From Candidatus Bathyarchaeota archaeon (GTDB taxonomy: Archaea > Thermoproteota > Bathyarchaeia > 40CM-2-53-6), in contig CAVPLU010000004.1 of the NCBI GenBank assembly GCA_963706285.1, forward strand, positions 192,001 to 256,000: a stretch of 64,000 nucleotides of DNA, given 5' to 3'. The stretch's first letter is position 1; each line of letters starts with the position of its first letter. Below the pieces are notes generated by a model. That model saw nothing but the letters and a program-made list of their open reading frames with translations. It was not told the DNA's origin and did no database searches. Shown piece by piece: positions 4,261 through 45,939 of the stretch. The translations under genes were made by a program, and so were the position numbers.

Positions 4261-6137
4261 CTAGGATCTGCGGCTCCGTCGGACTCTAAGCGAGTATAAG
4301 GCCGCTCCGATCGCGATTATCGCCAAGAATCCGAGAACTGCTGCGTACTCCGTCCAGCCCGGACCTGCGGGGCTTGCTGTAACCGTGAAGTTTACTGAGA
4401 GTTCGCTCTCGTTGCCAGCGATGTCCAGAGCCCTGACTTCGATTATGTGGTTTCCATCGGTAAGTCCAGTGAAGACATGCGTTGTATTCGTCCCAACGCT
4501 TGTCCACAATCCGCTATCTAGTCTAATTTCGTAGCGACCAATCCCAGAGGTTTCGTCTGAACCTGTCCATGTGACCGTTGCAGTAGATGCCCCTATCTGT
4601 GAGCCGTTCAGCGGAGAATCTATTGAGATGTTTGGTGGGCTTTTGTCCAGCTCTATTCCTGTGAGTGTTTTGTGGGGTGTCTCCTCTATGCCTGTTTTGT
4701 CCACACTCCAATATTCCAAGGTGTTGTTGGCACCTTCGGCTGTGATCGTTGGTTGTCCATCAGTGCTGACACTCCGTGTTGGTCCGTTATTGATTTTGTA
4801 GTATATGTTCGCGAGGCCTCCTAAGTCGTTGGCAGTTGAAAGGTTGATTTTGAAATCCTTAGCATGCCAGGTTCCAGTCGTAGTCGTGCGTGGTTTGTAG
4901 GCCTATTTCCGTGACTCGATAGATCCCCCAGCCGTATGGGAACGTGTACGTTCTAACCACGTCGCCTTTCGGGTTCACTTCAACCACCTCAGCTCCAAGA
5001 GTATTCGGGACGTAGTGGGTCTGTGCACCGAAAGCTCCTATCAGATCTCCGTTAGGCAGTATGTCGGCGCTTCCCCAGTAAGGAGTCCAATACGCGCTAG
5101 GAGCAGTCCAACTCCAGGTTGTACGAGCAGTCATGTTCTGCTCGTTCACTGTGACTTCTAACATTCTGCTATGTGAGCTCGTTCCGTCGTAGCATTTGTT
5201 GGCAAGGCTTGGTTGTGTTGTGATAATCATTATCAAACATCAAGAATACGTTTGGCTGAACTTCCTTGACATCATGGGAGTGATACCACAAACTTGGAAC
5301 CTTATTCCCATTCTGGTCGAAGAGTGCGAAATTCCCATGTTCACCTAGGCACCAGATGGTCCGACTTGTGGTCTTGTCAATCTTGCAGAATGTGTTCTGA
5401 GCTCGCATGTTGAAGTAGATTATGTTCTTGTCATAGATCCATTGAAGACTATTCGAATGGGTGAGGTCTATCAGCACTTGGCCTGCGGCTGTAGCCGTGG
5501 GATAGCTCTCGGTTGTGTCGTTGCAAGGGCATTCATCTTTGAGACTGAAGTGTCCATCGGCATAGGTATCCCAGCTCCACAAAATCCCGCCCGTGCTGTT
5601 GAGCTCATAGATATGGTCCATGAGGACTTGGTGCCCATCGATCACTCTTATGTAATCTCTGAATGTCAGGAAGGTGTGGGTGACCGGATTGTATTCAATA
5701 TCATGGTGGCCCCAAACGTTTGGGAAATCGGTTGTCTTGTTCGTTTTCATGTTCCAGAAATGCGTGGCTAATGAATCCGGTTCCCCCATAAACATCAGCG
5801 TGTCCGGTGAGATGTACTTAACAGGCCAGTAGCTCGGAAGATCATTAGATCTTCGAAGATAGAGCAATTGGCCGTCAGTTGTCATCACGTCCAAGGAGCT
5901 GCCAAGTGGGCTTAGATTCGAGGAATTGAACTGCCACAATCCGAATGCCAAGTACCCATTCCAAGCGTTACCGAACGTATCAATCTTGACCGGTACAACA
6001 GAAGCGTCGCCGGCTGAAGGAACCGACTGAACGGCAGCGCCAGAGAGCTGAGCGGCGCTGTTGGAAAAACCGAGACATGCAATCAACAAGGTTGTTACTA
6101 GGAGAACTGAATGCTTACATGCTTTCGAGTTAGCCAT
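4261..6137 (-). CDS. Arylsulfate sulfotransferase (ASST)-like secreted protein with Ig-like domains and C-terminal TM anchor; split by about 2 frameshifts
   Basis: ORFs 5169-6137, 4859-5236 and 4261-4719 join into signal peptide + ASST-like motifs (HHDIEY, DLTHSNSL, YHSHD, MFDND, WGSADILPNG, IYRV) + Ig-like repeats + TM + RVRRSRRS. Confidence 0.72.
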
Positions 6138-6536
6138 TTTCAGAAGTTCTCCTCTGTAGAGTGTGACCGGTTGATTGTGTAATAACCCCTTTGTGTGCAG
6201 ATCGACTCACTAGAGAGTTCTTTCCTCTTGGCTTGAATCATGTCGAATGATCGCAAGAGGCGATCGACTGAGTGAATGGGAATTCCACGTGCACTCTTTT
6301 TGAGTGAAGCATTGTAGGTCCATCTCAGGATTTCTATGCCCCACATGCAAAACATGTGTGGTTGGTCGTCTGGCCATATTTCGACAGAGCTTTCTACAGC
6401 GATATTGTAGAGCTTTCTCAGTACTGGTGATCATGCAAACGGAGTCTTGCCGTAGGTCATAAGCCACATGGATGATTCGTACATTAGTATTATATCGCTC
6501 AGAGAGTAGCGGGCTGCGATCAATGAGGTCATGTAG

Positions 6537-6716
6537 TTGAACATTCTCCATTCTATTCTGCAAGTTGCTCCCCGAATCGCTCCGCGAGGGCTCGGCATAG
6601 GAGGACTCATCTTCGGGACCGTTGTGGCCGTATCGATTCTCCTAGTCAGCGTGGGTTTCTTCTACGTTCTGTTGAAAGTAGGGAGATACCTTGACGCCAT
6701 GAGAGAGAAAGTGTAG
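6537..6716 (+). CDS. Small (59 aa) single-pass membrane protein
   Basis: Below the ORF-track cutoff. TTG start after GAGGT SD, AT-rich TATA-like TATTATAT near 6490; MNILHSILQVAPRIAPRGLGIGGLIFGTVVAVSILLVSVGFFYVLLKVGRYLDAMREKV. Confidence 0.6.
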   Translation: MNILHSILQVAPRIAPRGLGIGGLIFGTVVAVSILLVSVGFFYVLLKVGRYLDAMREKV

Positions 6717-6819
6717 GTCATCTCGGTCGTTCTTGGACTCATCTTAATGACTTTACACAACAGATGAGTTCTCTTCAGAACTTCTTCAGAAGAGACAAAG
6801 AACGTTTTTCGAATGACTT

Positions 6820-7191
6820 GTGTCCAGCAAGCACAGGATGTGGCGAGTGTCTGTGAGGAAGGCGAGGGAGGGCGTAAGGGTCTTTACGTCTAGGGGGAAG
6901 CGTAAGTTCTCAAAGGAGAACCTTGCAGCGTTTCCTAAGGAGATTATTCGAGCCTTCGTGCGGTTGCCGAGAGTCTTCAAGAAGGTGGATCTTGACAGAG
7001 TTCTCGGGAATGAGATCTCAAGAAGCATGAAGTGGAGATACGTTCAAAGAATGGAACGCCTAGGCTTGGTGAAGCATTCCACCAAGAAATACTACCAGAA
7101 GATCTATGATAGCGTCTCCGATTGGATGGAGAAGGATGCCGTACCGAAGATCAAACACATGGAATCAGTCGCACTCATAGAAACGATCTAA
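6820..7191 (+). CDS. Basic hypothetical protein, possibly winged-helix DNA-binding
   Basis: Clean 123-aa ORF, K/R-rich; ISRSMKWRYVQRMERLGLVK resembles a wHTH recognition helix and wing. Confidence 0.55.
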   Translation: MSSKHRMWRVSVRKAREGVRVFTSRGKRKFSKENLAAFPKEIIRAFVRLPRVFKKVDLDRVLGNEISRSMKWRYVQRMERLGLVKHSTKKYYQKIYDSVSDWMEKDAVPKIKHMESVALIETI

Positions 7192-7296
7192 CCGCCCTCA
7201 AGAAGAATCCGCCAACAGTCGCTCCGCAGTGGAGAAAGCGGCAGCCTATCGAGCTATTCAGCAGCCCTTGGACCTTACAAATCCGCTCGGTCTTTG

Positions 7297-7350
7297 TGTA
7301 ATAAATACGAGTTATAGCGCTTCGTAAACGCATTTCTTGTAAAAATCACG
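7297..7350 (+). promoter_or_regulatory. Two similar semi-palindromic 13-mers upstream of asnA (candidate Lrp/AsnC sites)
   Basis: TGTAATAAATACG (7297-7309) and TGTAAAAATCACG (7338-7350), 10/13 identical, 41 nt apart, in an AT-rich intergenic region. Confidence 0.35.
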
Positions 7351-7388
7351 TCAGAATATGAGAAAATCTTATCTCGGACCAGCAGCTC

Positions 7389-8357
7389 GTGCTGGCGAGA
7401 ACCATGAAAACTTCGAAGGACGGCTACCCATTAGGATTGCTGGAAGGTCCGGAACATGATGAGAGACAGTCAGTCTTCGCTCTACAGACGGAGATCTTCA
7501 GGGTCTTCACTGACAGACTTGTGGAGAAGGGTTTCTCCTGGATACTCCCAGTCACGCTCTCCAAGTCCACAGATCCACTGTGGCCAGATCCAGGGGCCAG
7601 CATAGAGAAGAGAATACAGCTAGAGGTTTACGGTGAGAACGTCAAGACTATGCAAAGCATGATAGTTCACAAGAGAGTCCTGGTCTCTCTAGGGCCAGAG
7701 AGATTCTTCATACTCTCGCCCAATGTCAGGATAGAGAACAGGGAACGGGCTAAGACGGGAAGACATCTTTACGAGTTCACGCAGCTTGAAATAGAGATGG
7801 CGCACGCGAAGATGCAAGATATCTTCAAGCTATTCGAGGAACTCATCGAGGCATCTGTTTCCACGGTCAGAAAGAAACTAGGAAGAGAGCTTCAAATGCT
7901 CGGAAGAGACCTGATCGTCCCGGATACACCATTCAAAGTCCATGAAAGGAGCAGCCTTGAAGAAAAGTATGGCAAAGATTGGGTACAGGCTATTTCGGAG
8001 GAATCGAGACACCCTGTCTGGGTGACGGATCTCCCGAGAGAATTCTACGATTATCAAGACGAGAAAACCGGAGCATGGCGTAACTACGATCTAATTCTGC
8101 CTGAAGGATACGGAGAAGTGATCTCAGGCGCCGAAAGAGAATACGAGTATGAGAAGATCGTAAGAAAACTTGAACGAGACGGCCTAGACAAGCAAGACTA
8201 TGTTTCTATGTTGAGGCTTGCGAAGGACGGAGCCTTGAAACCATCAGCAGGAGCCGGGTTGGGGATCGAGAGATTCTTAGCCTATGTCTGTGGTGTGGAG
8301 CATGTGGCGGAGGTTCAACCATTTCCCAGAGTTCCCGGAGCAGTACCAGAGCTGTGA
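7389..8357 (+). CDS. asnA: Archaeal-type asparagine synthetase A (AsnRS catalytic-domain paralog lacking the anticodon-binding domain)
   Basis: Class II aaRS motifs SKSTDPLWPDP, RHLYEFTQLEIE, EVISGAEREYEY, SAGAGLGIER; no N-terminal OB domain. Start may be ATG 7404. Confidence 0.85.
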   Translation: MLARTMKTSKDGYPLGLLEGPEHDERQSVFALQTEIFRVFTDRLVEKGFSWILPVTLSKSTDPLWPDPGASIEKRIQLEVYGENVKTMQSMIVHKRVLVSLGPERFFILSPNVRIENRERAKTGRHLYEFTQLEIEMAHAKMQDIFKLFEELIEASVSTVRKKLGRELQMLGRDLIVPDTPFKVHERSSLEEKYGKDWVQAISEESRHPVWVTDLPREFYDYQDEKTGAWRNYDLILPEGYGEVISGAEREYEYEKIVRKLERDGLDKQDYVSMLRLAKDGALKPSAGAGLGIERFLAYVCGVEHVAEVQPFPRVPGAVPEL

Positions 8358-8420
8358 AACACATTCACATGCTATTTGTGAAGGGCGACAGGCAGAAATC
8401 ACATCGCTAGCCTTGGATGC

Positions 8421-8924
8421 TCATTGATGCTGCGTAACCGCATGTTTCTTGAGATCGATTTCCAAAGTCTCCTTTGCCGTGTCGAACACCATGCACGTCA
8501 CGGTCTTGTCGATTCCTCCGACGGTTCGGAGTTTGTCGACGACGAATCTCCCCACCGCATCGATGTCTGTCGTCTTCACCTTGATGAGCAAGTCCCAGTC
8601 GCCGCTGATTACGTGAACTTCCTGAACTTCTGGAAAACCTGCCACTTCTTTGGCCACTGTCCTTTGGGAAAGCATATTCTTGGTTGCTCCAGGAGTGCGA
8701 TAGGAGAAAGTGGCTAGAATGAAGGCAGTTGCGGCAAATCCAAGTTTGGGGCCATCGAGAACCGTCGCATACTGTCTTACAAGCCCGAGTTCCTCCATTC
8801 TCTTGATTTTTGCATACACCGTTGTCACAGGCATGTCGAGACTGAGCCCTAGTTCCTTCGCCGTCTTTTTCGAATCGCGCTGCAAAAGGTCCAGCAGTGC
8901 AATATCCAGCGAGTCGAGCCTCAT
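8421..8924 (-). CDS. Lrp/AsnC family transcriptional regulator
   Basis: LDSLDIALLDLLQRDSK HTH and RAM domain EVHVISGDWDLLIKV. Confidence 0.92.
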   Translation of the reverse strand: MRLDSLDIALLDLLQRDSKKTAKELGLSLDMPVTTVYAKIKRMEELGLVRQYATVLDGPKLGFAATAFILATFSYRTPGATKNMLSQRTVAKEVAGFPEVQEVHVISGDWDLLIKVKTTDIDAVGRFVVDKLRTVGGIDKTVTCMVFDTAKETLEIDLKKHAVTQHQ

Positions 8925-9082
8925 GTGTCGTCCTGTGGTTACAGAGTGATTCGTGCTTGAAAAGGAATCCTGCCTTAATCCGTGGATTGGCTATTGGCGT
9001 GAAAAACTTCTTGACGCCAAATCGCGTCGGAGCACTTATAGGGTGACCGTCGTGCTAAATTCGGAAATCCGGTAGCTGAAAC

Positions 9083-34767: not shown

Positions 34768-34902
34768 CAAGAATATGATTTGACAAGGGACATTAAAAGA
34801 GTTGTTAGAGCCATGCCCTGGACTCGACAGGATCAGGAAAACAAGCACTGGTCACCTTACTCCCGAGCGAGGCATGCTAGGGATAGGCTACGGCGGTCGG
34901 AA

Positions 34903-35707
34903 TCAGAGGCCCCAAGGGTTGGGTTGGGGCACCACGGCCATTATCGTTGAACTAAGCGCGACAACGGATATGACTGTGACGGCAATGAAACCAAGGTCAG
35001 CGTTGTGGAACCTCACATCTCTGAGGAAGGTCTTCTCAGCTCTTGACGAGAACCCGCGCGCCTCCAGGGCAATTGACCTCCTATAGGCTTCCTCTATCGC
35101 TCCCATCAGAAGTGGCGTGACAAGAGGAACGTATGTTTTGAGCCTCCGAACGATCCCGATACCTTCGAGTTGTAGTCCTCTCGACATTTGAGCCTGCTTC
35201 ACAGTTTGTAGTCTTGAGTCTATCGTAGGAACGATCTGGAATGCTGAGAAGAGTGGGTACGCGATTCTAAGTGGCAAGCCGAGCTTCTGCATTGAGGCCA
35301 TGAGATCTCCCGGACGGGTTGTCAGAGTGAGCAAGTATCCTCCACCGAAAATTGCCAAAAGGCGCGTCAGTAGGACAGCCGCAAAAACCAGTCCTTCACG
35401 TTTGAAATAGACCCATGGCAAGATGAAAAGAACGGGAGTCTTCCCAGCCGGATTGAAGAGCCCCTGAATAAGCAAGATCGGAATGAAGACTGGAAGAGAT
35501 ATCCTTCACTAGATTCTTGACGTAAACCGAGGCGACTCTTCCCACGGCAGATAGGATCACAGTGATACAGAACACCGCAAGACAGACAAGGATGCTATTG
35601 GAAACAACAGCCGGCAGCCCAATTGTGATCCACAGCGCAAGCTTGGTTCTGGGATCCAATCGATGGATCGGAGAGGAGCGCTGCACGAAAGTGAGTCGAA
35701 CAGACAA
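34903..35707 (-). CDS. ecfT: ECF transporter transmembrane T component; frameshifted
   Basis: SPIHRLDPRTKL, LTTRP, AQMSRG, ALEARGF. Confidence 0.9.
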
Positions 35708-35721
35708 TTGTGCTCTGTACT

Positions 35722-36329
35722 CTATGTTAGCGTCGTGTTGTCTTCACGAATTGAACTGGAACTCTCGTGTAGATCAGTCCACGCGATGAAGAACGTTATG
35801 ACCTTGTCCGAAATGTCCGAGATGAATTCTGCCGTCATGGATGCTGGGAAGACTTGCCAACCACCGGCCAAGAAGGCCGCGAAGATCGCGTCTACCCATG
35901 CTTTGCCTGTCGACCCGCCGTAAAGGTACACGTTAAGCGGCGTTGAGGTTAGGGTTGCCACGACTGCAAGAACCACGCTAATCGCGATCGTTCTGCCAAT
36001 CTGTGCTGGAAACTTGTATCTTTCCTGACGAACCCCAGCAACGCACATACGCCAGCTATGAGCCCAACTGCTGCATTGACTATTGCGTAAGGCAAGGCGA
36101 ATGGGTCGAACGTTACCCACTTGAAGACATTCGTGAGAATTCCTACGACTAACCCGTTGATGGGACCGATGATTATTCCCGCCAGCATAGAACCGAGCGT
36201 ATCAACCCAGATTGGCGTGCCCGCAGCTAGGTATGATGACGCGATGTTGATGCCGATCATTAGCGGGATCATGGCGATTCCGAAGGTGGAGAACTCTATC
36301 TTGAGTCTGGACGGTTTTGTTTCTGCCAT
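35722..36329 (-). CDS. ECF transporter S component, substrate unknown; frameshifted
   Basis: IPLMIGINI, PIWVDTLGSML...GP, GGSTG, DISDK over two frames; 3-prime end approximate. Confidence 0.8.
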
Positions 36330-36415
36330 CTCCTTCAGCCACGTGCCTAGGGTCCTATCGACTTGGATAATAATACTTACTCGGGACAAGACGCGCTACG
36401 TTGTCGCGAGCATGT

Positions 36416-37252
36416 TTAGCGAGTTAGCTCAACCATCTCCTCAACCGTCATGATGTCACGGCGAATCCCCAGATGTGAGAGGCTGATTGCCAATCGCGTG
36501 ACTTGCGGGGGCCGCACGCCTGACTGTTCAAGCGTTCCTGGATCGGACAGAATCCGTCTAGCTGATTCGTAGGCCGTTATCTCTCCATTGCACATCACAG
36601 CAACTCTCTCGCATTCTCTAGCAACAAATTCCATGTCGTGGGATATGATCACGACAGTCTTCCCGTCACGTTTTAGTTGTTCGAGAATCGAACCGAGTAG
36701 ACGTAACCCTCGGTAATCCTGTCCAGCGTTAGGCTCGTCCATTACCACAATATTCGGATCCATAGCGAGAACTGATGCGAGGCATAGCATCTTCCTTTGG
36801 CCATACGTCATGTTGTATGGGTGTTCCAATATGAAAGGCAACAGGCCAACCATGGACAGCGCGTTGTGTGTCGCACGTTCTATGCTTGCTTCATCCATAC
36901 CGATGTTCTTGGGCCCAAAGGCCACTTCCTCGATGACCGAGGACTCAAACAGCTGATCTTCAGGATTCTGAAAGACGTAACCCACCTCTCGAGCCATCTG
37001 ACTGGCAGACCTCTTCGAAGTGTCTATGCCAACCACGCTCACAGTCCCGGAAGTAGGTTTGAGGAGACTGTTCAAATGCTTTGCAAGCGTTGTCTTGCCA
37101 GCTCCATTCCTTCCTATGAGTGCCACAGTGCTCCCGGCCTCAATCTGGAGGTTCACATTCCTGAGCGCCTCGCGCCCGCTAGAATATTGATAGTGAAGAT
37201 TCTCAACGGAGACAGCCAATGGCACGTTACTCACCACAGAACTGTTTCTCAA
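36416..37252 (-). CDS. ecfA2: ECF transporter ATPase
   Basis: GRNGAGKTT, FQNPEDQLF, DEPNAGQD, SHDM. Confidence 0.9.
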   Translation of the reverse strand: MRNSSVVSNVPLAVSVENLHYQYSSGREALRNVNLQIEAGSTVALIGRNGAGKTTLAKHLNSLLKPTSGTVSVVGIDTSKRSASQMAREVGYVFQNPEDQLFESSVIEEVAFGPKNIGMDEASIERATHNALSMVGLLPFILEHPYNMTYGQRKMLCLASVLAMDPNIVVMDEPNAGQDYRGLRLLGSILEQLKRDGKTVVIISHDMEFVARECERVAVMCNGEITAYESARRILSDPGTLEQSGVRPPQVTRLAISLSHLGIRRDIMTVEEMVELTR

Positions 37253-38090
37253 TCATCTCGGCCGCCTGGGACTCGTCGAGAGGATAGTCACCTCTCCACA
37301 GACCCTTTTCGTCCAACAGACCAGCTACCTGAGCGACTTGGGTATGTCGAACGCCAAGTTTCTCTGCGAACCGAACCTTCCTTGAGAACTCCTGCGGGGA
37401 ATCTAGCGCAACAATCTTGCCGTTGTTGAGGATACAGATCCTACTTGCATATTGAACGAGTGTCTCAGGTTGATTAGAAACCAAGATCGTCGTCATGGCG
37501 TATCTCTCATGAACAGAGTGGACTGCTCTCATGACGGAGACGGCACCCTCTGGATCCAGTAGTTCAGTCGGTTCATCCAAAATCATGATCTGAGGTCGCA
37601 TGGCAATCGCAGTAGCGAGGGAGAGTCTCTGCTGTTCTCCACCGGACAACTCGAAAGGCGCCCTTGTCTCAAATCCCGACAAGCCGACTGCGTCAAGCGC
37701 TTCTGCGATCCTATCCACCATAGCTTCCCTTGGGACTCCTAGGTTCTGAAGTCCAAAAGCCACTTCCTCCTCGACCGTCATGGCTGAACCGGTCATCTGT
37801 GAACGAGGGTCCTGAAACACGATTCCAACGAAACCCGATAGCTCCGACACCTCGCTTTTCCCAGTGTCAAAGCCTTTCACGCTGACAGTCCCTCGCATGG
37901 TTCCTTCGATGACATGTGGGACAAGTCCATTCAGTGAATGACAGAGTGTTGACTTGCCCGCGCCTGAGGGGCCAGTAATCCCGACGAACTCGTTATCCAT
38001 CACTTCTATGGTGATTCCATCCAGTGCCCAATCAACCCGTGAAAGGTAGCGAAAAGCCAGGTCAGAGATTGTGATCGCAGCGGAGGCCAT
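37227..38090 (-). CDS. ecfA1: ECF transporter ATPase
   Basis: Probable start ATG 38090; GPSGAGKST, FQDP, LSGGEQQR, DEPT. Confidence 0.9.
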   Translation of the reverse strand: MASAAITISDLAFRYLSRVDWALDGITIEVMDNEFVGITGPSGAGKSTLCHSLNGLVPHVIEGTMRGTVSVKGFDTGKSEVSELSGFVGIVFQDPRSQMTGSAMTVEEEVAFGLQNLGVPREAMVDRIAEALDAVGLSGFETRAPFELSGGEQQRLSLATAIAMRPQIMILDEPTELLDPEGAVSVMRAVHSVHERYAMTTILVSNQPETLVQYASRICILNNGKIVALDSPQEFSRKVRFAEKLGVRHTQVAQVAGLLDEKGLWRGDYPLDESQAAEMIEKQFCGE

Positions 38091-38309
38091 CAGGCGAGTT
38101 CCCTTATACACTCTAAAATGTCTCTTACATAAAGCGGATTTTGGACTCAGCCTAGTATTGGCAGACATGTCGAATCGGGCGAACCGCACGAGCGGCTCGG
38201 CTAATCGCAAGTTATTAACTTGAGAACTCATTCCAATCACCGAGGCCAAGTTCGTGGCCGGTTCGGCGAGTAGGCCTCGGAGCCAAGTGGCGACGACTGG
38301 CAGGAGGGG

Positions 38310-38475
38310 TCTGGTCCTTGAGTTGTCCTTCGCAGCGATATACGCAGTGGCCGTTGTGGCGCTTGGCCCTATTAGTTATGCTGTGATCCAGATCCGCATT
38401 GCAGATGCCCTGATTCCGCTCTCCATTGTCTTTGGTCTCCCGGTGGTCTTAGACGTCACATTGGGAAACATCGCT
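38310..38475 (+). pseudogene. Truncated QueT-like ECF S component fragment
   Basis: FAAIYAVAVVALGPISYAVIQIRIADALIPL...TLGNIA resembles the QueT N-terminus; hydrophobic similarity ends after about 55 codons and the ORF runs antisense into the tRNA. Confidence 0.55.
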
Positions 38476-38572
38476 GAAAAGCGGCTGAGCGAATTAGCTC
38501 GAGAGGTCAATCAATTCAATCTCAAATCCAGAGCAGATCGCCATCAGATCAAGACGATTATCAGAGAGATTA

Positions 38573-38678
38573 TGGAGCCCCGGCCGAGGTTTGAACTCGG
38601 GACCCTTGCCTCTTCAGTCTTCGTTACCAAGGCAATGCTCTCGGCTGCAAAGCATCTACCAGGCTGAGCCACCGGGGC
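38573..38678 (-). tRNA. tRNA-Thr(GGT) with two introns (D-arm about 22/23, 16 nt; 37/38, 13 nt), CCA encoded
   Basis: GCCCCGG/CCGGGGC, U73; removing ATGCTTTGCAGCCGAG and ACGAAGACTGAAG gives TTGCC-TTGGTAA-GGCAA. Confidence 0.88.
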
Positions 38679-38926: not shown

Positions 38927-39781
38927 TTGGTTAAGCGATGTCCAACATGCGGATACAACAACAGAGACGATGCCGTCTTCTGCTCAAGCTGCGGCGGTTC
39001 ACTTGCTGCCGCTGGAGCACCAATGATGAAACCAGTGCCGTCAGTTCGTGTGGTAACTCCGGTCACGTCAGGCGCCCCAATGAGGGTTCCAGCACCAGGA
39101 ATGTGTTTCTACCACCCGAGCCTTCCAGCTGTGTACATATGCAACCGTTGTGGCAGAGCAATCTGCCGTGACGACTCGAAGTCCTACATGGACCTAGTCC
39201 TCTGCCCACAGTGCTACCAAGGAATTGTGCCGCCGATGGCTATGGCTCCCCAAGCACCACAATACGCGCCAGCACCACAATACGCGCCAGCACCACAGTA
39301 TGGACCAGCATACGCACCACCACAATTTGCGCCTGGACCACAATTTGCCGGACCGATGATGGGCCCTATGGGAGCTCCCATGATGGGAGCCGGACCTGCA
39401 AGGTCGCTATGGGCTTTCATACTCGCCTTGGTTTCAGGAATTCTTGTGCTGCTCAACGCGGGACTGCTGCTAGCGTGGCAATTCTACGGCGGAACATTCC
39501 TTTGGGCGAACATATTCTTCTGGATCTGCAACATTGACCGTTCCACAGGATGTCCACTGCCTTCAGGATCTACTGCGACTGGCACGATCACATTCGTGAT
39601 CGGAGCAATCATAGGCCTAATCATAATCGTCGGATCGATTATGATGATCCTAGGATACGGCACAATCGGCAGCCTCATCATTTTCCCGCTAGCCGTCTTC
39701 AGCCTGATCATAGGCGGCGGCTTCATCGCAGGCTTCGTACTAGGCATCATCGCCGGTATCATGGGCATGTTAGGGCGATAG
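38927..39781 (+). CDS. Zinc-ribbon + B-box-like zinc finger + P/Q/Y/M-rich linker + multi-TM membrane protein
   Basis: CPTCG...FCSSCG; CFYHP...CNRCGRAICRDD...CPQC; APQY repeats; 3-4 C-terminal TM helices; GGAGG SD. Confidence 0.85.
   Translation: MVKRCPTCGYNNRDDAVFCSSCGGSLAAAGAPMMKPVPSVRVVTPVTSGAPMRVPAPGMCFYHPSLPAVYICNRCGRAICRDDSKSYMDLVLCPQCYQGIVPPMAMAPQAPQYAPAPQYAPAPQYGPAYAPPQFAPGPQFAGPMMGPMGAPMMGAGPARSLWAFILALVSGILVLLNAGLLLAWQFYGGTFLWANIFFWICNIDRSTGCPLPSGSTATGTITFVIGAIIGLIIIVGSIMMILGYGTIGSLIIFPLAVFSLIIGGGFIAGFVLGIIAGIMGMLGR
39254..39307 (+). repeat. 18-nt in-frame tandem repeat x3 (APQYAP/APQYGP)
   Basis: gcaccacaatacgcgcca twice, then gcaccacagtatggacca. Confidence 0.9.
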
Positions 39782-39823: not shown

Positions 39824-41478
39824 TTGGTCGTGTGTTCCGTGTCGTATGTGGCGATCTCCGGCCAAGTAGCCGAGAAGTTGGTTAGGGAGGCGAGAGATCA
39901 TCCAGAAGAGCAGGTCGTCGGTGTGTTGCTCGGCGGACAGTTCGGCAGCACCATTTCCATTGAAGATGCAGCGACAGGACCTGCCAACGCGGACGCCACA
40001 AAGGCAACGCTGACCGGGGATTCGATCGCAAGAATAGCGGATGACATAATCAATAAGAGAATAAGAGGAAGTATCGTTGGTTGGTATCATTCTCATGTTC
40101 GCGGTGGCGTCTTCATGTCCGAGACGGACGTGGAAACGCAGCTCAAACTTCAACAGTTTTCTCCTCTGGTGACAGCAATGGTGATTGACACGCAAACAGG
40201 AACATCAGGATTCTTCAGGGCTGACCCGAAGACGCGAGAGGCGGTGTCTGTGCCTTCGCAGAACGCAAGGGCCGAAGTTCATCGCCCGGATCCGCATCCT
40301 ACTATGCGCCTGAGCGAGCGACGTACCCGCAATATCCGACGCCCATGACCCAGGGCCCGTCAACTCGTACACTGTTGCTGGCACTTCTGATTATCACATT
40401 GGCCGTAACAGGAGGCATCCTGGCGCTGGTATACTACCGCAACCCAACAGTCTCCGGTGGCAGTGGTAATCTCGCGATAACTCATGCTCCACCTAGCGGG
40501 CCATTCACGATCGGGAGCCCTATAACGATCGATGCAAACGTCACCGGCTCTAAACCTACTGAACGTCACGTTGGCCTACAAGATAATCGAAGCAGCTCCC
40601 AACTCCCAGGGCGGATTGATCATTGGAAACTTGGTTCAAGTGCCCATGCTTCCGAGATCCGCAGGAGTGCACGAACCACCTGCACGTATTCGTACACTTT
40701 GCCGTCGTCTGAAATATCCGGAGTCTATGTTCAGTACTACATTTCCGCCTTCGACACTGCTTCCCCGCCTAATATTGTTCGCACTGATATCTACACTCTC
40801 AATGTGGGAGATTTCAGTTGGCGTGATGACACGACCGAGGTAGTTGCCATTCGACAAGCCCAGGCTGGCATATCACTTCCCTTGGATTCGATTAATGGCT
40901 TCAGTGACCTCATCACCATCAGAATCCTCACTCAACCGCCGCTAGGAGTTCGAATAGTTCCTATCAGCACGCAAGTTCGTCCTCCAAACGCCGCCAACCT
41001 AATAATAACCAGCACTGAAAACGCGCAGATCAGTTACAAGTACCCGATTCAAGTCGATGCCGTGTATACTGTACGCAACGTGCAGGTAATACGCTCCACA
41101 ATACTGCAGCTCACGTTGACTGACATCGACATCGCTGTCTCGCCAACCTACGCGAAGACCCAGCAATGTTATGCCTCCGATAGCTGCCTTGACTCGAATG
41201 AGTTCGCACAGTACACTGTGACGCTTACGATCTACGACGGATTTACCGCCCCGAACGGTATCCAACTGTTCCCAAGTGGTCTTCCGGATCATACTCGCTA
41301 CGAGATTCTGTTGGTCAGTCAGAAGATTGGCACGGACGAAACGCAGACATTAACTTACTCTCTCATAGTTCGCGCTGATACAGATTCCACTGTGAACAGG
41401 TACCTCTTTTCAATGATAGTCAGGGCCGGAAGTATCACACACAGTGTGGACAACATACAGTTTGAGATCGTGGACTGA
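39824..41478 (+). CDS. JAMM/MPN (Rpn11-like) domain + linker + TM helix + Ig-like ectodomain; probably one gene split near 40278 (alternatively two coupled genes)
   Basis: GWYHSHVRGGVFMSETD and AMVID; the alternative frame from about 40279 reads SSPGSASYYAPERATYPQYPTPMTQGPSTR straight into the TM helix; further compensating shift about 40555-40680; many N-x-S/T sequons after the TM. Confidence 0.78.
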
Positions 41479-41519: not shown

Positions 41520-41771
41520 TTGAAACTCTTCGTTCAGGCACCTATTGGGCCGCAGACAGGGCTGGCTGAGATTGATGTTATACCGGATCATACAGTCGGA
41601 GAGATCAAGCAGCAGGTATGCACCTCGTTCGGAGTTGACCCTGCTACGGTCGCGTTGATGTACGGCGGCATCATACTTGACGAGTCCAGCACAGTCAGCA
41701 GAGCCGGGATCCCTGAGAATGCCCAACTCGCACTGATGCCCTACAATATCATCGGTGGCAACGGAAGGTGA
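41520..41771 (+). CDS. Ubiquitin-like modifier precursor (ends GG-NGR)
   Basis: 83 aa, TVGEIKQQV...LMYGGIILDESSTVSRAGI ubiquitin-fold pattern, di-Gly plus 3-residue extension; GGAGGTGA SD. Confidence 0.88.
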   Translation: MKLFVQAPIGPQTGLAEIDVIPDHTVGEIKQQVCTSFGVDPATVALMYGGIILDESSTVSRAGIPENAQLALMPYNIIGGNGR

Positions 41772-42361
41772 ACCTTCCGCTTCTCTACAAGGAGAAGAAT
41801 TTCACAAACCACCAATTCCCAACGGTAATGGCTCTCAATGATCCGCCCACGGCATACGAGGGTATGCTCAGGTGCGAGAAGGGAGAAGTGAAGACTCTCG
41901 CCGAGAAGAAGATCTGGCCCTTCACCGAGTATGCGGACTGGAACAGGTTCAGGCTAGAACTTCCGGACGAGTACCCCGTGAAGCCTCCCAAAGCGATTTG
42001 GCTCTCCGACATCTCCCACCCAAACATAGTCCCCAAGGTCATGAATGCCGTCTGCGTCTCTATCATCGGCGAGAACTGGCGTCCCGACCTGAAGCTTGTC
42101 TCTGTAGTGAACGCTCTTTACTACCTCCTGTCTGATCCAAACCCTGACAACGTATTCGACCACCCCGATTGCCTCAAGGCTGCAAACGTCTGCAGATCAT
42201 ACGGATTTCCAAAAATGACAAAGCGAAAGACCGCGACACAGCAGGGCGATCTTGTTCGATTCAACATCGTTCCTGTACCTCAAACGCGGCCAAGAGAGCC
42301 TGCACCGACGGGAGATGTGATACGATTTCGAATCCTTGACAGGGAGCGAAAGGAACATTAG
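41768..42361 (+). CDS. E2 ubiquitin-conjugating enzyme
   Basis: FRLELPDEYPVKPPKA, HPNI, catalytic AVCVSII, NWRP, LLSDPNPD; GTGA overlap with the Ub gene. Confidence 0.92.
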   Translation: MNLPLLYKEKNFTNHQFPTVMALNDPPTAYEGMLRCEKGEVKTLAEKKIWPFTEYADWNRFRLELPDEYPVKPPKAIWLSDISHPNIVPKVMNAVCVSIIGENWRPDLKLVSVVNALYYLLSDPNPDNVFDHPDCLKAANVCRSYGFPKMTKRKTATQQGDLVRFNIVPVPQTRPREPAPTGDVIRFRILDRERKEH

Positions 42362-43618
42362 TTGAAAGTAAAGCTCTCGATGCCGTCTGTTCGAGACATA
42401 GAACTTGACGTTCCTTCAACAGCAACGATCAGTCACCTAAAGGAAAAGGCATGCAAGAAGTTAGGAATCGAGTCTGACCTGACAAGCATCCTATGTGATG
42501 GTGCTCGGATTGATGGGAAGCGAAGCGTCGGCAGCCTCCATCTCAAGCAGAAGCTCCTGACAGTCGACTATCTCTGGGCTCGTCATCTAATACTTTGGGG
42601 GCCGGATGGGCAGAAACGACTGAGAGGTGCAACTGTACTTGTCGCTGGTGCGGGAGCGATTGGTAATGAGGTTGCGAAGAACCTTGCAATGCTCGGCGTC
42701 AAGCGCCTACTGATCATCGATAACGATACCGTCGAACTTTCGAACACGAGCCGAATGATCTTCTTCGATCGCAAGAGCCTGGGCTTGAACAAGGCGGAAA
42801 TGCTCGCCAGAGGAATCACCCAGAAGTTCCCCTATGTTGAGGCAATTGCATGGACCGGTGCACTCGAAGACCTCCCACTCGAACACATCCTAAGTGCCGA
42901 CGTGATCGTGTGCGGTCTAGACAACGTACTCTCCAGGATATACCTAGCACAAGTTTCCAGAAGGTACTCCATACCAATGGTAGACGGAGGCATCGTTGGG
43001 TATCGCGGACGTGTCCAAGTCTACGTTCCCCCAGACACGCCATGCCCGCTGTGCACATACCCATCCTCCGAATACGGCCGCATTGCAGGGCTCAGGAACC
43101 CCTGCGATGGGCCAGCTGAAGAAACGAAGGTCCCATCTCTTCCGACGACGATCTCGTTGGTTTCTTCGATCCAATGCCAAGAGGCGACCAAACTGATCGT
43201 TGGTTACCAAAGCTACTTGAGAACTGCGATTTGGCCGAAAGAGACCGGAGAACCGCTCAGGGGCGTGCTGATGATCGACTTGCAGTACAATCGTTACAGC
43301 CTGATGGAGATCAAGCGGAATAAGAGCTGCGTTGTGTGCGGGGAAAACGGGCTGGCCGAGAAGCCTGTGCCAGTGCTGACGATCCCGATAGGAGAAATTC
43401 GCGACTCAACCTCCAGACTGCATCAGATGGTTGCTAGCAGAATGAAACTGACAGCACAGCAAGTTATGTTGTTCTTGCAGCGTCAGAACAAGACAGTGCG
43501 AGTCGAGAAAGGGCAGTCTCTTCGGCGGGCACGCATCGGTGTGGGGAGCGTCATCACCGCGGTCGCACAAGATGGACCCGACTACAGTGAAGCTGTGGTC
43601 AGGCTCACAAAGCCCTAA
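42362..43618 (+). CDS. E1 ubiquitin-activating enzyme with N-terminal Ubl domain and C-terminal UFD-like domain
   Basis: GAGAIGNEVAKNL, DNDTVELSNTSR, GLDN, zinc pairs CPLC and CVVC, candidate catalytic Cys in RNPCD; start directly abuts the E2 stop. Confidence 0.9.
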   Translation: MKVKLSMPSVRDIELDVPSTATISHLKEKACKKLGIESDLTSILCDGARIDGKRSVGSLHLKQKLLTVDYLWARHLILWGPDGQKRLRGATVLVAGAGAIGNEVAKNLAMLGVKRLLIIDNDTVELSNTSRMIFFDRKSLGLNKAEMLARGITQKFPYVEAIAWTGALEDLPLEHILSADVIVCGLDNVLSRIYLAQVSRRYSIPMVDGGIVGYRGRVQVYVPPDTPCPLCTYPSSEYGRIAGLRNPCDGPAEETKVPSLPTTISLVSSIQCQEATKLIVGYQSYLRTAIWPKETGEPLRGVLMIDLQYNRYSLMEIKRNKSCVVCGENGLAEKPVPVLTIPIGEIRDSTSRLHQMVASRMKLTAQQVMLFLQRQNKTVRVEKGQSLRRARIGVGSVITAVAQDGPDYSEAVVRLTKP

Positions 43619-43728: not shown

Positions 43729-44109
43729 ATGCGACAGTGTTTATCCTGTGGAAGTAGAAACTCCGATGACGCAGCCTTCTGTAGCATGTGTGGGCTCTCC
43801 TTTGCTGGAAGCCAACCGCAGCAGTATATGCAACCAGTCGGAGCGGCGATGAAACCCGTTCCAATTGTGAAAACGATCACCCCATTGGCGCAGGCAGGCC
43901 CGCAGCAGTGGCCAGTTCCAATGGCTCGGCCGCAGATGACGATCGGATCCTGCTCTTTTCACCCTGAGCTTCCGGCATCGTACATTTGCCTTCGATGCGG
44001 CAAGCAGATATGCTTCTCCTGCACGAAAACCTACGGTCAGCTGGCGATATGCCCTGAGTGCTACTGGGCACTTGCACCACGTACAGGCACAGCGCAGCCG
44101 GGACGCTGA
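43729..44109 (+). CDS. Soluble zinc-ribbon + B-box-like protein, paralog of 38927-39781
   Basis: CLSCG...FCSMCG; CSFHP...CLRCGKQICFSC...CPEC; shared MKPVP linker motif. Confidence 0.85.
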   Translation: MRQCLSCGSRNSDDAAFCSMCGLSFAGSQPQQYMQPVGAAMKPVPIVKTITPLAQAGPQQWPVPMARPQMTIGSCSFHPELPASYICLRCGKQICFSCTKTYGQLAICPECYWALAPRTGTAQPGR

Positions 44110-44120
44110 AACGATCTTTC

Positions 44121-45727
44121 CTACGCGAGGAGCCCTTTCCTCTTCAGTCGCTCCGTGGATAGCTTGACCTCATTCACGGACAACCCAAGATCCTTCGAAG
44201 CTTGGCTAAGTGATATCTCACCATTTCGTTTCGCGATATATTGGTAGACTCGGTTATCCAGCTCCTCAAAGCCAACGGCGGCTGATGCCTGACCTCGCTT
44301 CCGGGCTCCAGCAACCGCGGTCCTGCGTCGTCTGACACCGGAGCTAAGCGATGAGCCCAGCCTTGCAAAAGATCTCGGGCGCTTCGCAATTATGAATATG
44401 ACAGCAGTGACGATTGTTGCTGCAGCGCCCAAAGAGACAATGAAGATCCACAAGGGTGCATAGTCTGTGACCCACTGTGCCTCTACTATGTAGGGTCGAT
44501 CCATCGTGACCTCATTTTCACCCGGTGGGACAGCGCTAATCACGTTCGAGGAATTGAGGCGCCAGCCAGCGAGCGTATGTTTCACTAATAGTTCTGACCC
44601 GCTGTAAGTCACATCAAACCTTGCTTTTTCCCCATCAAGATACCAGCCAGTACCTGTCGGTTCCCCAAATGAGGACGTTACCAGAAGGTAGTACTGTGTT
44701 TGATAGATCAACCGTACGTTGTGCGGTTTGTTCATCACAAGCTCCGCCGATGTTCCTGGCTGAGTCATGCCATCGATATTCCATGAAAGCCAGACAAATC
44801 GTTGAACCGAGCTTCCCGGGATTGAGATTATTTGAGGAACAGGTCCAAGAGAAGCAGTCTGGCCAGCATCGTACCAGGTGCTGTTAGGGGCTGAGATTTT
44901 CTGAGCAATGTCTGGTGGATCGTAAGTGACGTCCAATTTGTATTGTGTCTTGTATCTTGCAGTCACTGACTTGGGTCCATCCATGCGAGCAGACCCGTGG
45001 GAATCGGTACCTGTGTAGTCTCCTACCCATTGAACAAAGACCTGTCGAGTATCGGTTCCATTTGTTCCTTTAGGTGCAAGGAAATCTGCCGTAGATCCAG
45101 CGTCGAGCCAGAGAGTTGAGGGCGAGAAAAGTCCGACCGGATCATACGATATTCGAAGGATATACTGTGTCTTCCAGGTGGCAACGGCTTTCTTCGGACC
45201 ATTCATGACTATCGAGTCGGAGATTATTCCCTGCCCCGAGGCATCCTGTCCCCACTTGACAAACAGATATCTCACTCCTTCGGATCCGCTTGTCATGTTC
45301 GTGTCCAACCTGGCTTGAGCAGTTGTTCCCCCGTCGTACCAATCACTTCTAGACGGCGCTCCGTACTGAGAGACGACTTCGAGGTAGTATTGTGCCTTGT
45401 AGGTGAATGTGTGGGTGCCAGCTCCCGTGAAGGACCAGAGGTTGTCTCTGCATTGATACCTGGTTCCGTTGGCCCCGCCCACGTTTAGGTCGACGCTGAG
45501 CGTGTGCGCACCGCCAGGAGAGATGCTTAGGGTCTTCGTGTCGCCTGTTGCAATCGTTCCGTTTAGTATGCCGTCCAGGTAATATTGAGTTCTTGCTCCG
45601 CTGGAAGCCCTACCACTGTGAAGGAGACGGAGTACGCTTGAGCCTTCACGAGTGTCGGTGCGGTGACGAGAGAAATGAGGATCAGTGCGTCAAGTGCCAA
45701 GATGGCCAATCTAGTCCTCGACAACAT
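44121..45727 (-). CDS. Surface protein with about 4 divergent InlB-B-like repeats, TM helix and cytoplasmic winged helix; frameshift near 45600
   Basis: Signal peptide from ATG 45727 (MLSRTRLAILALDALILISLV), repeated QYxLxV...WYDxGxxA units, TM, C-terminal LDNRVYQYIAKRNGEISLSQASKDLGLSVNEVKLSTERLKRKGLL. Confidence 0.8.
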
Positions 45728-45939
45728 GAAGGGTGGGCCTCCGCCACCCGTTTAGCATGTGTCTAGGCCTAAAATGTATTACACTCTCGGATCTGCCTTA
45801 TCGTGCCAAAACAGCAAGCCGGTAATCAATCTCTATGTCAGATTGACTGCGCCGATATGGAGGATGCGAAGCCTGACGATACGATTTGCCAAGCCCATGA
45901 GCGCAATCGTCATAACTAATTCGGCCCACTCACTGAGAT

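Follow-up and report, generated by a model that had tools for sequence, protein, structure and literature searches.

The locus described here lies at positions 39824-41478 of a 64,000-nucleotide window of contig CAVPLU010000004.1 (hereafter C4) from a Candidatus Bathyarchaeota archaeon. As assembled, it holds two open reading frames (ORFs): the upstream ORF encodes a JAB/MPN (JAMM) domain, and the downstream ORF, 40345-41478, in which a Pfam scan matched no family, encodes the end of a linker, a transmembrane helix and an ectodomain. Both ORFs have an ATGA at 40345-40348 in common and were located where an earlier note, made from the letters of this DNA, had put them. That note had proposed that a single indel near 40278 would join the two parts into one protein, and had kept two translationally coupled genes as the other possibility. 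According to our comparisons with relatives, the two ORFs of 39824-41478 form a single gene of about 550 codons, and its product is likely a membrane-tethered, Rpn11-like deubiquitinase with three extracellular beta-sandwich domains. Throughout an order of Bathyarchaeia, the architecture of JAMM domain, transmembrane helix and ectodomain is kept next to the genes for ubiquitin, E2 and E1. The coordinates of all features can be seen in Table 1.

The frame of the downstream ORF is open upstream to about 40225, and its translation there gives a P/Y/S-rich stretch followed by the hydrophobic helix. The last 23 codons of the JAMM frame, which stops at 40346-40348, have the appearance of an out-of-frame translation and no counterpart in any orthologue. 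Compared with contig C20 of the same assembly, which is 94% identical, the window is without one base at 40279, and it further differs by +1 at 40556, +1 at 40665 and -5 at 40675-40679; the twin gene on C20 is an intact open frame of 556 amino acids (aa). An intact 550-aa protein of another public assembly, P0002, is near-identical to the window protein. It matches frame 2 up to 40288 at 149/155 residues and frame 1 from 40279 at 350/401, the frame-1 mismatches being concentrated in the shifted ectodomain stretch, and the junction between the frames falls between AEV and SSP. Judged from this alignment, P0002 represents the window allele in its unbroken form. C20 and P0002 together confirmed the exact site of the indel that the earlier note had suspected. 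In the fused frame, the ATG at 40345 lies within the coding sequence, where C20 has Val, so that the ATGA overlap is coincidental.

Relatives carry the same fused frame. When 41 related genomes were searched with the ectodomain ORF, matches were found in 22 of them. Apart from the window locus itself, 22 matching places were listed, 15 of which have open frames of 503-625 aa whose upstream extension is the JAMM domain. All 13 full-length orthologues aligned end to end and in frame; programmed frameshifting was rejected because all orthologues are in frame. In a set of 5.8 billion proteins we obtained 79 clusters (E <= 1e-3), mostly of 512-561 aa and with PF01398. A profile of the ectodomain alone had 85 strong database matches, 62 of which contain PF01398; of the other 23, 19 lie on contigs of at most 3.1 kb. 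The full-length fused homologues that the earlier note had proposed to look for therefore exist, as intact ORFs of 527-561 aa, in C20, in P0002, in the 13 aligned relatives and among these 62 matches. One database protein, P0095, was considered as a fusion of FtsW to the ectodomain and is read as a chimera, its contig being partial and 3 kb long and its ectodomain near-identical to that of the JAMM-fused P0085.

The gene split and the two frame changes in the ectodomain are very probably consensus errors that arose where two haplotypes of about 94% identity were assembled. In the fused (C20) frame, the differences between the window and C20 are mostly silent: the ratio of nonsynonymous to synonymous rates (dN/dS) is 0.12 overall, 0.05 in the JAMM part, 0.17 in the ectodomain and 0.07 in the 41 codons out of frame (about 40 within the 377-aa ORF). 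In the window between 34 and 63.5 kb (C4 226000-255500), seven genes are broken in frame against their orthologues; the six others are those of an AsnC/TRASH regulator, CbiQ, an ECF S component, a winged helix-turn-helix (wHTH) membrane protein, TRM5/TYW2 and GMP synthase. The breaks in these others are at about 34290, 34400, 35500, 35778, 36020, 45600, 46350, 46535 and 62200. Among sampled genes, no frame break was found in 21 on other contigs, in 10 on C20 or in 6 elsewhere on C4. The statement that the window is full of such indels accordingly holds for 34-63.5 kb and fails for the genes sampled elsewhere. The frame breaks are local to a region that has a near-identical second haplotype, C20 sharing 94-95% DNA identity with C4 220728-226769 and 230500-241413; the assembly contamination is 7.5%, and the C20 twin seems to stem from a second population in the bin. 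It is the dominance of silent changes, together with six other genes broken locally and none of those sampled elsewhere, that favours consensus error. Weighing against it, the change may be a real strain-specific frameshift, and three database proteins (P0016, P0059 and P0084) begin in the linker or in the transmembrane helix, so that splits, real or artefactual, occur elsewhere. The frame breaks in the ectodomain coincide with a loop of strain-variable length. Two real, translationally coupled genes, namely a soluble JAMM and a separate membrane protein starting from ATG 40345, would agree with the ATGA overlap, with a frame 1 that remains open across the shifted stretch and with the starts of those three proteins. 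We consider this arrangement very unlikely, since the ATG is internal to the frame found intact in the orthologues and is Val in C20, the final 23 codons of the JAMM frame are matched by no orthologue, about 40 ectodomain codons would be nonsense, dN/dS agrees with the fused frame, and neighbouring genes have breaks of the same kind. A real and recent pseudogene in a decaying, duplicated genome segment is likewise highly improbable. It would account for breaks that are confined to one region of C4 with an intact twin on C20, but C20 and C4 are each without genes that the closest relative keeps, and the ancestral downstream synteny is kept by C4 and not by C20, which fits two populations better than a duplication. 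The contamination of the assembly, the silent changes, the breakage of GMP synthase as well, and the ubiquitin, E2 and E1 genes of the same stretch, which are intact and 97-100% identical to C20, also speak against decay.

As for the JAMM domain itself, the match to PF01398 (E 9.4e-14) is above the cut-off and places it in the MPN fold. The zinc/oxyanion motif HxH-x7-S-x2-D is present in the window as HSHVRGGVFMSETD, and His89, His91, Ser99 and Asp102 are invariant in 60/60 family members. The closest solved relative by phmmer is CsRpn11 (E 1.7e-13, ungapped over 111 residues), with CSN5 and Rpn11 next. Foldseek with the JAMM part of the model likewise gave CsRpn11 (6fnn, TMt 0.85, root-mean-square deviation 2.2), and also CSN5 and Rpn11. 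CsRpn11 is encoded in the ubiquitin operon of Caldiarchaeum subterraneum as its Rpn11-like JAMM (PDB 6FJU and 6FNN; Fuchs et al. 2018, PMC6043591; Nunoura et al. 2011, PMC3082918). The JAMM core of the window protein ends at about residue 147, which matches the active CsRpn11 truncated at residue 149 that Fuchs 2018 used (PMC6043591), and this argues for kinship with Rpn11.

In order to describe the remainder of the protein, we used an AlphaFold model of the intact C20 twin, based on an alignment of 60 sequences, with a predicted local distance difference test score (pLDDT) of 83. The model consists of the JAMM domain (residues 1-147), a disordered linker (150-179), a helix (181-205) and three beta-sandwich domains (215-551). 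The succession of JAMM domain, P/Y-rich linker, single transmembrane helix and immunoglobulin (Ig)-like ectodomain that the earlier note had read from the sequence is supported by this model, by hydropathy and by the orthologues. The linker is the least conserved segment (mean pairwise identity 0.35). A single helix is predicted in 19/19 orthologues, with hydropathy of 2.4-3.2, and the model agrees. The ectodomain of about 340 aa, when modelled alone, has a pLDDT of 88.7; it belongs to no family in Pfam or NCBIfam. Foldseek searches with the whole model and with the ectodomain alone returned generic tandem Ig arrays only (TM-scores <= 0.45) and no specific ligand-binding relative, and the remote profile matches are to Ig domains of S53/subtilase peptidases. 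Within the ectodomain, conservation is highest in domain 1, which has invariant residues and two conserved sequons (NVT), each kept in 56/60 sequences. By prediction (model and hydropathy), the protein has the layout of an extracytoplasmic domain, a transmembrane helix and a cytoplasmic output.

The topology that we favour, with a cytoplasmic JAMM domain and extracellular beta-sandwich domains, is suggested by a search of the protein that found no N-terminal signal together with the single helix, by a slight excess of lysine and arginine before the helix (1.48 vs 1.10 after it), by the NVT sequons and by relatives of the ectodomain in secreted peptidases. Less favourable to it, this positive-inside signal is weak, and the sequon density of the ectodomain (0.89 per 100 aa) equals what its composition would predict (0.80).

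Table 1 Features of the locus and of the surrounding gene cluster. Positions are those of the window; E-values are from Pfam families.
Feature	Positions	Strand	Basis and remarks
Upstream ORF	39824-40348	+	174 aa; JAB/MPN, PF01398 E 9.4e-14 (Pfam)
Downstream ORF	40345-41478	+	377 aa; linker end, transmembrane helix, ectodomain
JAMM/MPN domain	39824-40278	+	Frame 2; zinc/oxyanion motif HSHVRGGVFMSETD; Gln30 after Glu28, Glu29
Missing-base site splitting the gene	40278-40279	+	1-base gap vs C20; P0002 changes from frame 2 to frame 1
P/Y/S-rich flexible linker	40279-40371	+	Frame 1; pLDDT <50 at model residues 150-179
Single transmembrane helix (predicted)	40372-40440	+	Hydropathy; model helix 181-205
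Ectodomain, three beta-sandwich (Ig-like) domains	40441-41478	+	Two NVT sequons in domain 1
Ectodomain stretch out of frame as assembled	40556-40680	+	True reading is frame 2, NLLNVTLAYKIIEAAPNSQGG... (C20 indels, frame-2 high-scoring segment pair, P0002)
Zn ribbon, B-box-like binuclear Zn finger, P/Q/Y-rich linker and 3-4 transmembrane helices	38927-39781	+	First gene of the cluster
Ubiquitin homologue ending GG-NGR	41520-41771	+	PF00240 E 8.5e-10
E2, UBC fold, HPN...C motif, C-terminal extension	41768-42361	+	PF00179 E 1e-15
E1-like ThiF adenylyltransferase with N-terminal ubiquitin-like domain	42362-43618	+	PF00899 E 9.6e-48; PF00240 E 2e-6
Soluble paralogue of the Zn-ribbon and B-box-like module	43729-44109	+	Pfam, alignment
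Ectodomain-transmembrane-wHTH membrane protein	44121-45760	-	Signal/anchor, repeat-rich ectodomain of about 400 aa, transmembrane helix, cytoplasmic winged helix

The gene is the second of seven that occur in the same order in all eight larger loci fetched from relatives: a Zn-ribbon/B-box-like membrane protein, the JAMM protein, ubiquitin, E2, E1 with a ubiquitin-like domain, a soluble Zn-ribbon/B-box-like protein and a divergent ectodomain-transmembrane-wHTH protein. Across the eight loci, the identity to the window is 80-100% for ubiquitin, 63-98% for E2, 38-97% for E1, 31-95% for the JAMM domain and 25-80% for the ectodomain. As in operons of the Caldiarchaeum type, a ubiquitin with GG is clustered with E1 and E2 and adjacent to an Rpn11-like JAMM, but the small RING-finger E3 of such operons is missing: no RING family was above the Pfam cut-off in the cluster, and the finger matches below it are to zf-B_box (E 4e-4 to 6e-3) and Prok-RING_1 (E 2e-3). 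In a profile search against PDB sequences, the N-terminal Zn ribbon alone had a match (ArnA, E 1.7e-4), and the B-box part had none.

The protein of 38927-39781 has matches to Zn_Ribbon_1 (E 1e-6) and, below the Pfam cut-off, to zf-B_box (E 6e-3), its transmembrane helices being assigned by hydropathy. The ligand pattern of the Zn-ribbon/B-box-like module is conserved in 15 sequences, and this protein is our candidate for a membrane-anchored, E3-like partner. It and the protein of 43729-44109 are paralogues in which a Zn ribbon is combined with a conserved KPVPxVR motif and an eight-ligand B-box-like finger, and the pair occupies the place of the RING E3 in Caldiarchaeum. In the membrane form the Zn module is joined via PQ[YF] repeats to the 3-4 helices. 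The wHTH protein of 44121-45760 has a weak match to HTH_24 (E 0.009 and 0.011), and its N-terminus is broken in frame near 45600 in the window; it may be a transcription factor tethered to the membrane, and it is a candidate substrate. In three relatives its tail holds a Zn ribbon of the type found in the B-box-like proteins, which is absent in the window and in C20.

The named loci that match the family profile are from Candidatus Bathyarchaeia/Bathyarchaeota. Related operons elsewhere have other forms of the JAMM protein. In other Bathyarchaeia the JAMM domain of the same operon is fused to a six-helix DUF998 (PF06197 E 8.5e-19), and in a quick tree these forms nest within the clade having one transmembrane helix and three Ig-like domains (SH-aLRT 98). 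Thermoplasmata have JAMM-transmembrane-Big_7 instead, with the rest of the operon retained. Acidobacteriota have a JAMM with a transmembrane helix beside E1, and the operons of Aigarchaeota, Nitrososphaerota and Asgard have soluble JAMMs. Since the membrane and Ig part is replaced by DUF998 or by a helix with Big_7 while the operon is retained, it is membrane tethering that recurs, not this ectodomain, and tethering looks more conserved than sensing. The acidobacterial JAMMs (L068, L083 and L091-L100) have one transmembrane helix and a short P-rich tail, stand beside an E1-like gene, and form a clade separate from the archaeal operonic JAMMs.

Among 22 related loci, 11 have a ubiquitin gene that stops directly after GG, and the remainder add 1-6 residues. 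Maturation of pro-ubiquitin, which the earlier note had suggested as a task of this enzyme, cannot be its conserved job; going by these C-termini, the shared role must be deconjugation. In the mechanism that we propose, the P/Y-rich tether of about 30 residues would hold the deubiquitinase at the inner face of the membrane, and the tethered JAMM would take ubiquitin off the conjugates that the membrane-anchored ligase module produces. It would also trim the precursor wherever ubiquitin has a tail (GG-NGR here).

The catalytic Glu of CsRpn11 is Glu24 (PMC6043591). This residue aligns without gaps with Gln30 of the window protein, at the same spacing of 59 residues to the first His, so that the canonical Glu is absent. 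Of the 18 loci scored in the family with three Ig-like domains, 13 have another residue at this position (Q in 9, K/R in 4). These counts and the tree omit L001, L009, L011, L012, L014, L015 and L020-L023, which are duplicate places or broken ORFs, and L029 was not scored because its N-terminal region is absent. In an alignment of 89 JAMMs, the Glu is absent in 14 (13 of this family and one truncated relative). An acidic residue at position i-2 is found in 14/14 rows without the Glu vs 11/75 rows that keep it. The tree needs four state changes, at least three of them independent, and three independent pairs on well-supported branches all have the same direction, which are too few for significance. 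On this pattern, it is probable that the general base for catalysis has moved from the canonical position (Gln30) to the acidic residue two positions upstream.

The Gln aligned with Glu24 and the frequent replacement of the Glu in the family weigh against an active enzyme. Loss of the canonical Glu would normally cripple a JAMM enzyme, and the change to Gln leaves the activity itself open to doubt. The covariation with i-2 comprises only 3-4 independent events (sign test p 0.25), and two further small, soluble JAMM genes in the genome could process ubiquitin. A serious rival is therefore a pseudo-deubiquitinase that has kept the zinc site and lost the general base, and that would serve as a membrane-tethered, ubiquitin-binding module without cleavage, for example by holding a free or conjugated GG end. 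The loss in the window's genus of the Pro that follows HxH would also agree with a catalytically dead domain, and the two other JAMMs could do the cleaving. We nevertheless hold it to be unlikely, because the Ser, both His and the Asp are kept throughout the family, the Ser having a catalytic role in known JAMM enzymes, because the i-2 acid resembles compensation, because the JAMM part has a dN/dS of 0.05, and because the ubiquitin of this genome needs its NGR tail removed. For a true transmembrane receptor, in which an extracellular ligand or envelope component on the Ig-like domains would switch the cytoplasmic JAMM, one may point to the receptor-like layout of the model, to the conservation of domain 1 with its invariant residues and two sequons, and to the second ectodomain-transmembrane-wHTH protein that is always encoded alongside. 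A disordered linker of 30 residues between helix and JAMM is badly suited to passing on a conformational signal, a nested clade that keeps the operon has DUF998 in place of the ectodomain, and Foldseek gave no ligand-binding homologue; we regard a receptor as quite unlikely. The gating of the enzyme by an extracellular cue, as the earlier note had imagined it, is conjectural; the swap of the membrane and Ig part, the ubiquitins without a tail and the Gln in place of the catalytic Glu all bear on it. The fullest form of the idea, a transmembrane signalling device whose output is ubiquitin removal, whose ectodomain reports a condition outside or in the envelope and whose catalytic acid has been relocated, seems to us distinctly improbable. 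The membrane-tethered deubiquitinase remains our preferred reading.

In such a signalling device, the tethered JAMM and the membrane-anchored B-box-like ligase would set the ubiquitylation state of membrane proteins. The neighbouring ectodomain-transmembrane-wHTH factor would then be a candidate substrate, whose release or turnover would control transcription, and the device would be a prokaryotic forerunner of the way in which membrane-bound transcription factors are processed with the help of ubiquitin.

Among archaeal Rpn11-like JAMMs, the protein has a new architecture, and the ubiquitin cluster around it is membrane-centred. It shares with CsRpn11, its best match in sequence and fold, the position beside ubiquitin, E2 and E1, the HxH...S..D motif and an ungapped core including Ins-1. 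CsRpn11, unlike it, is soluble with two C-terminal helices in place of linker, transmembrane helix and Ig-like domains, and has Glu24 where the window protein has Gln; the Caldiarchaeum operon has a small RING protein where the window cluster has B-box-like zinc fingers. The MPN+ fold is also shared with eukaryotic Rpn11, CSN5 and AMSH/STAMBP. Each of them is either a subunit of a soluble complex or recruited peripherally, AMSH working at the membrane on endosomal cargo, and we know of no transmembrane helix or ectodomain in them. USP19 and USP30 are deubiquitinases held at the membrane by a transmembrane helix of their own; unlike the window protein, they are cysteine proteases of organelle membranes and have no large extracytoplasmic, sensor-like domain. 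The Haloferax desampylase HvJAMM1 and other small archaeal JAMMs, two of which are encoded in the genome, share the JAMM fold but are soluble proteins of about 130-160 aa, lie outside E2-containing operons and form separate clades in the tree; the window JAMM matches the NCBIfam model of the HvJAMM1 type weakly (30 bits vs a cut-off of 130).

Of the sister architectures, JAMM-DUF998 and JAMM-transmembrane-Big_7 are operonic JAMMs with a membrane part, beside ubiquitin, E2, E1 and Zn-ribbon/B-box-like genes, and at the acidobacterial loci only an E1-like gene was matched alongside. The sister forms differ in having other membrane or ectodomain modules, and all keep the canonical Glu. Database members of the family are labelled 'proteasome lid subunit RPN8/RPN11' or are unnamed, and no NCBIfam model reaches its cut-off for the window protein. 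Burroughs, Iyer and Aravind (2011, Mol Biosyst) reportedly tied prokaryotic B-box domains to membrane-associated peptidases, which may bear on the novelty. The earlier note knew of no described single-pass JAMM receptor, and our literature searches likewise found no membrane-anchored JAMM described in the available portions of the papers retrieved (including PMC5654768, PMC11354881, PMC6043591, PMC1779556, PMC4506424 and PMC4594999).

Archaeal operons of eukaryote-like ubiquitin components serve to reconstruct the origin of ubiquitin signalling, and the studied Caldiarchaeum example is fully soluble. Here three of the seven cluster products are integral membrane proteins, namely the deubiquitinase-like JAMM, the B-box-like candidate ligase and the winged-helix protein, which suggests that ubiquitylation operates at the archaeal cell membrane. 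Eukaryotic counterparts of such roles are endoplasmic-reticulum-associated degradation, endocytic sorting and the processing of membrane-bound factors. The family with three Ig-like domains is moreover a natural experiment on the JAMM active site, in which Glu is changed to Gln, Lys or Arg with an acid two residues upstream. Annotators should not carry the locus forward as two genes on account of its split in this assembly.

Some minor observations concern the surrounding genes. E2 is present in one copy per haplotype, and its C-terminal extension (42200-42361) has the short motif D-[LV]-[VI]-R-F-x-I repeated twice. At 61473-64457 of contig C12 of G000 there are two neighbouring Snf7/ESCRT-III-like genes (ESCRT, endosomal sorting complex required for transport), one of them above the Pfam cut-off, and membrane machinery of this type may coexist with the membrane-centred ubiquitin cluster. 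The Zn-ribbon/B-box-like transmembrane gene of a relative is split into two frames (L020 11523-12387), so that such frame breaks are not unique to the window's assembly. A natural two-subunit split of GMP synthase was considered for the broken gene of the window and rejected, as the shift of frame is internal to the GATase domain. Gene content is not the same in the two haplotypes. At 34769-38500 of the window there are genes for CbiQ, ECF S and two ABC ATPases, C20 has at 6027-8945 a 341-aa gene of no Pfam family instead, and the closest relative, L014, has both sets. The junction adjoins a tRNA gene of 103 nucleotides on the reverse strand (38576-38678), which was recognised by Rfam with 43 bits, ARAGORN having found none in 33-50 kb, and which probably has an intron. 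The listed ORF 38254-38667 overlaps this tRNA gene and, at the overlapping end, is unlikely to be a gene.

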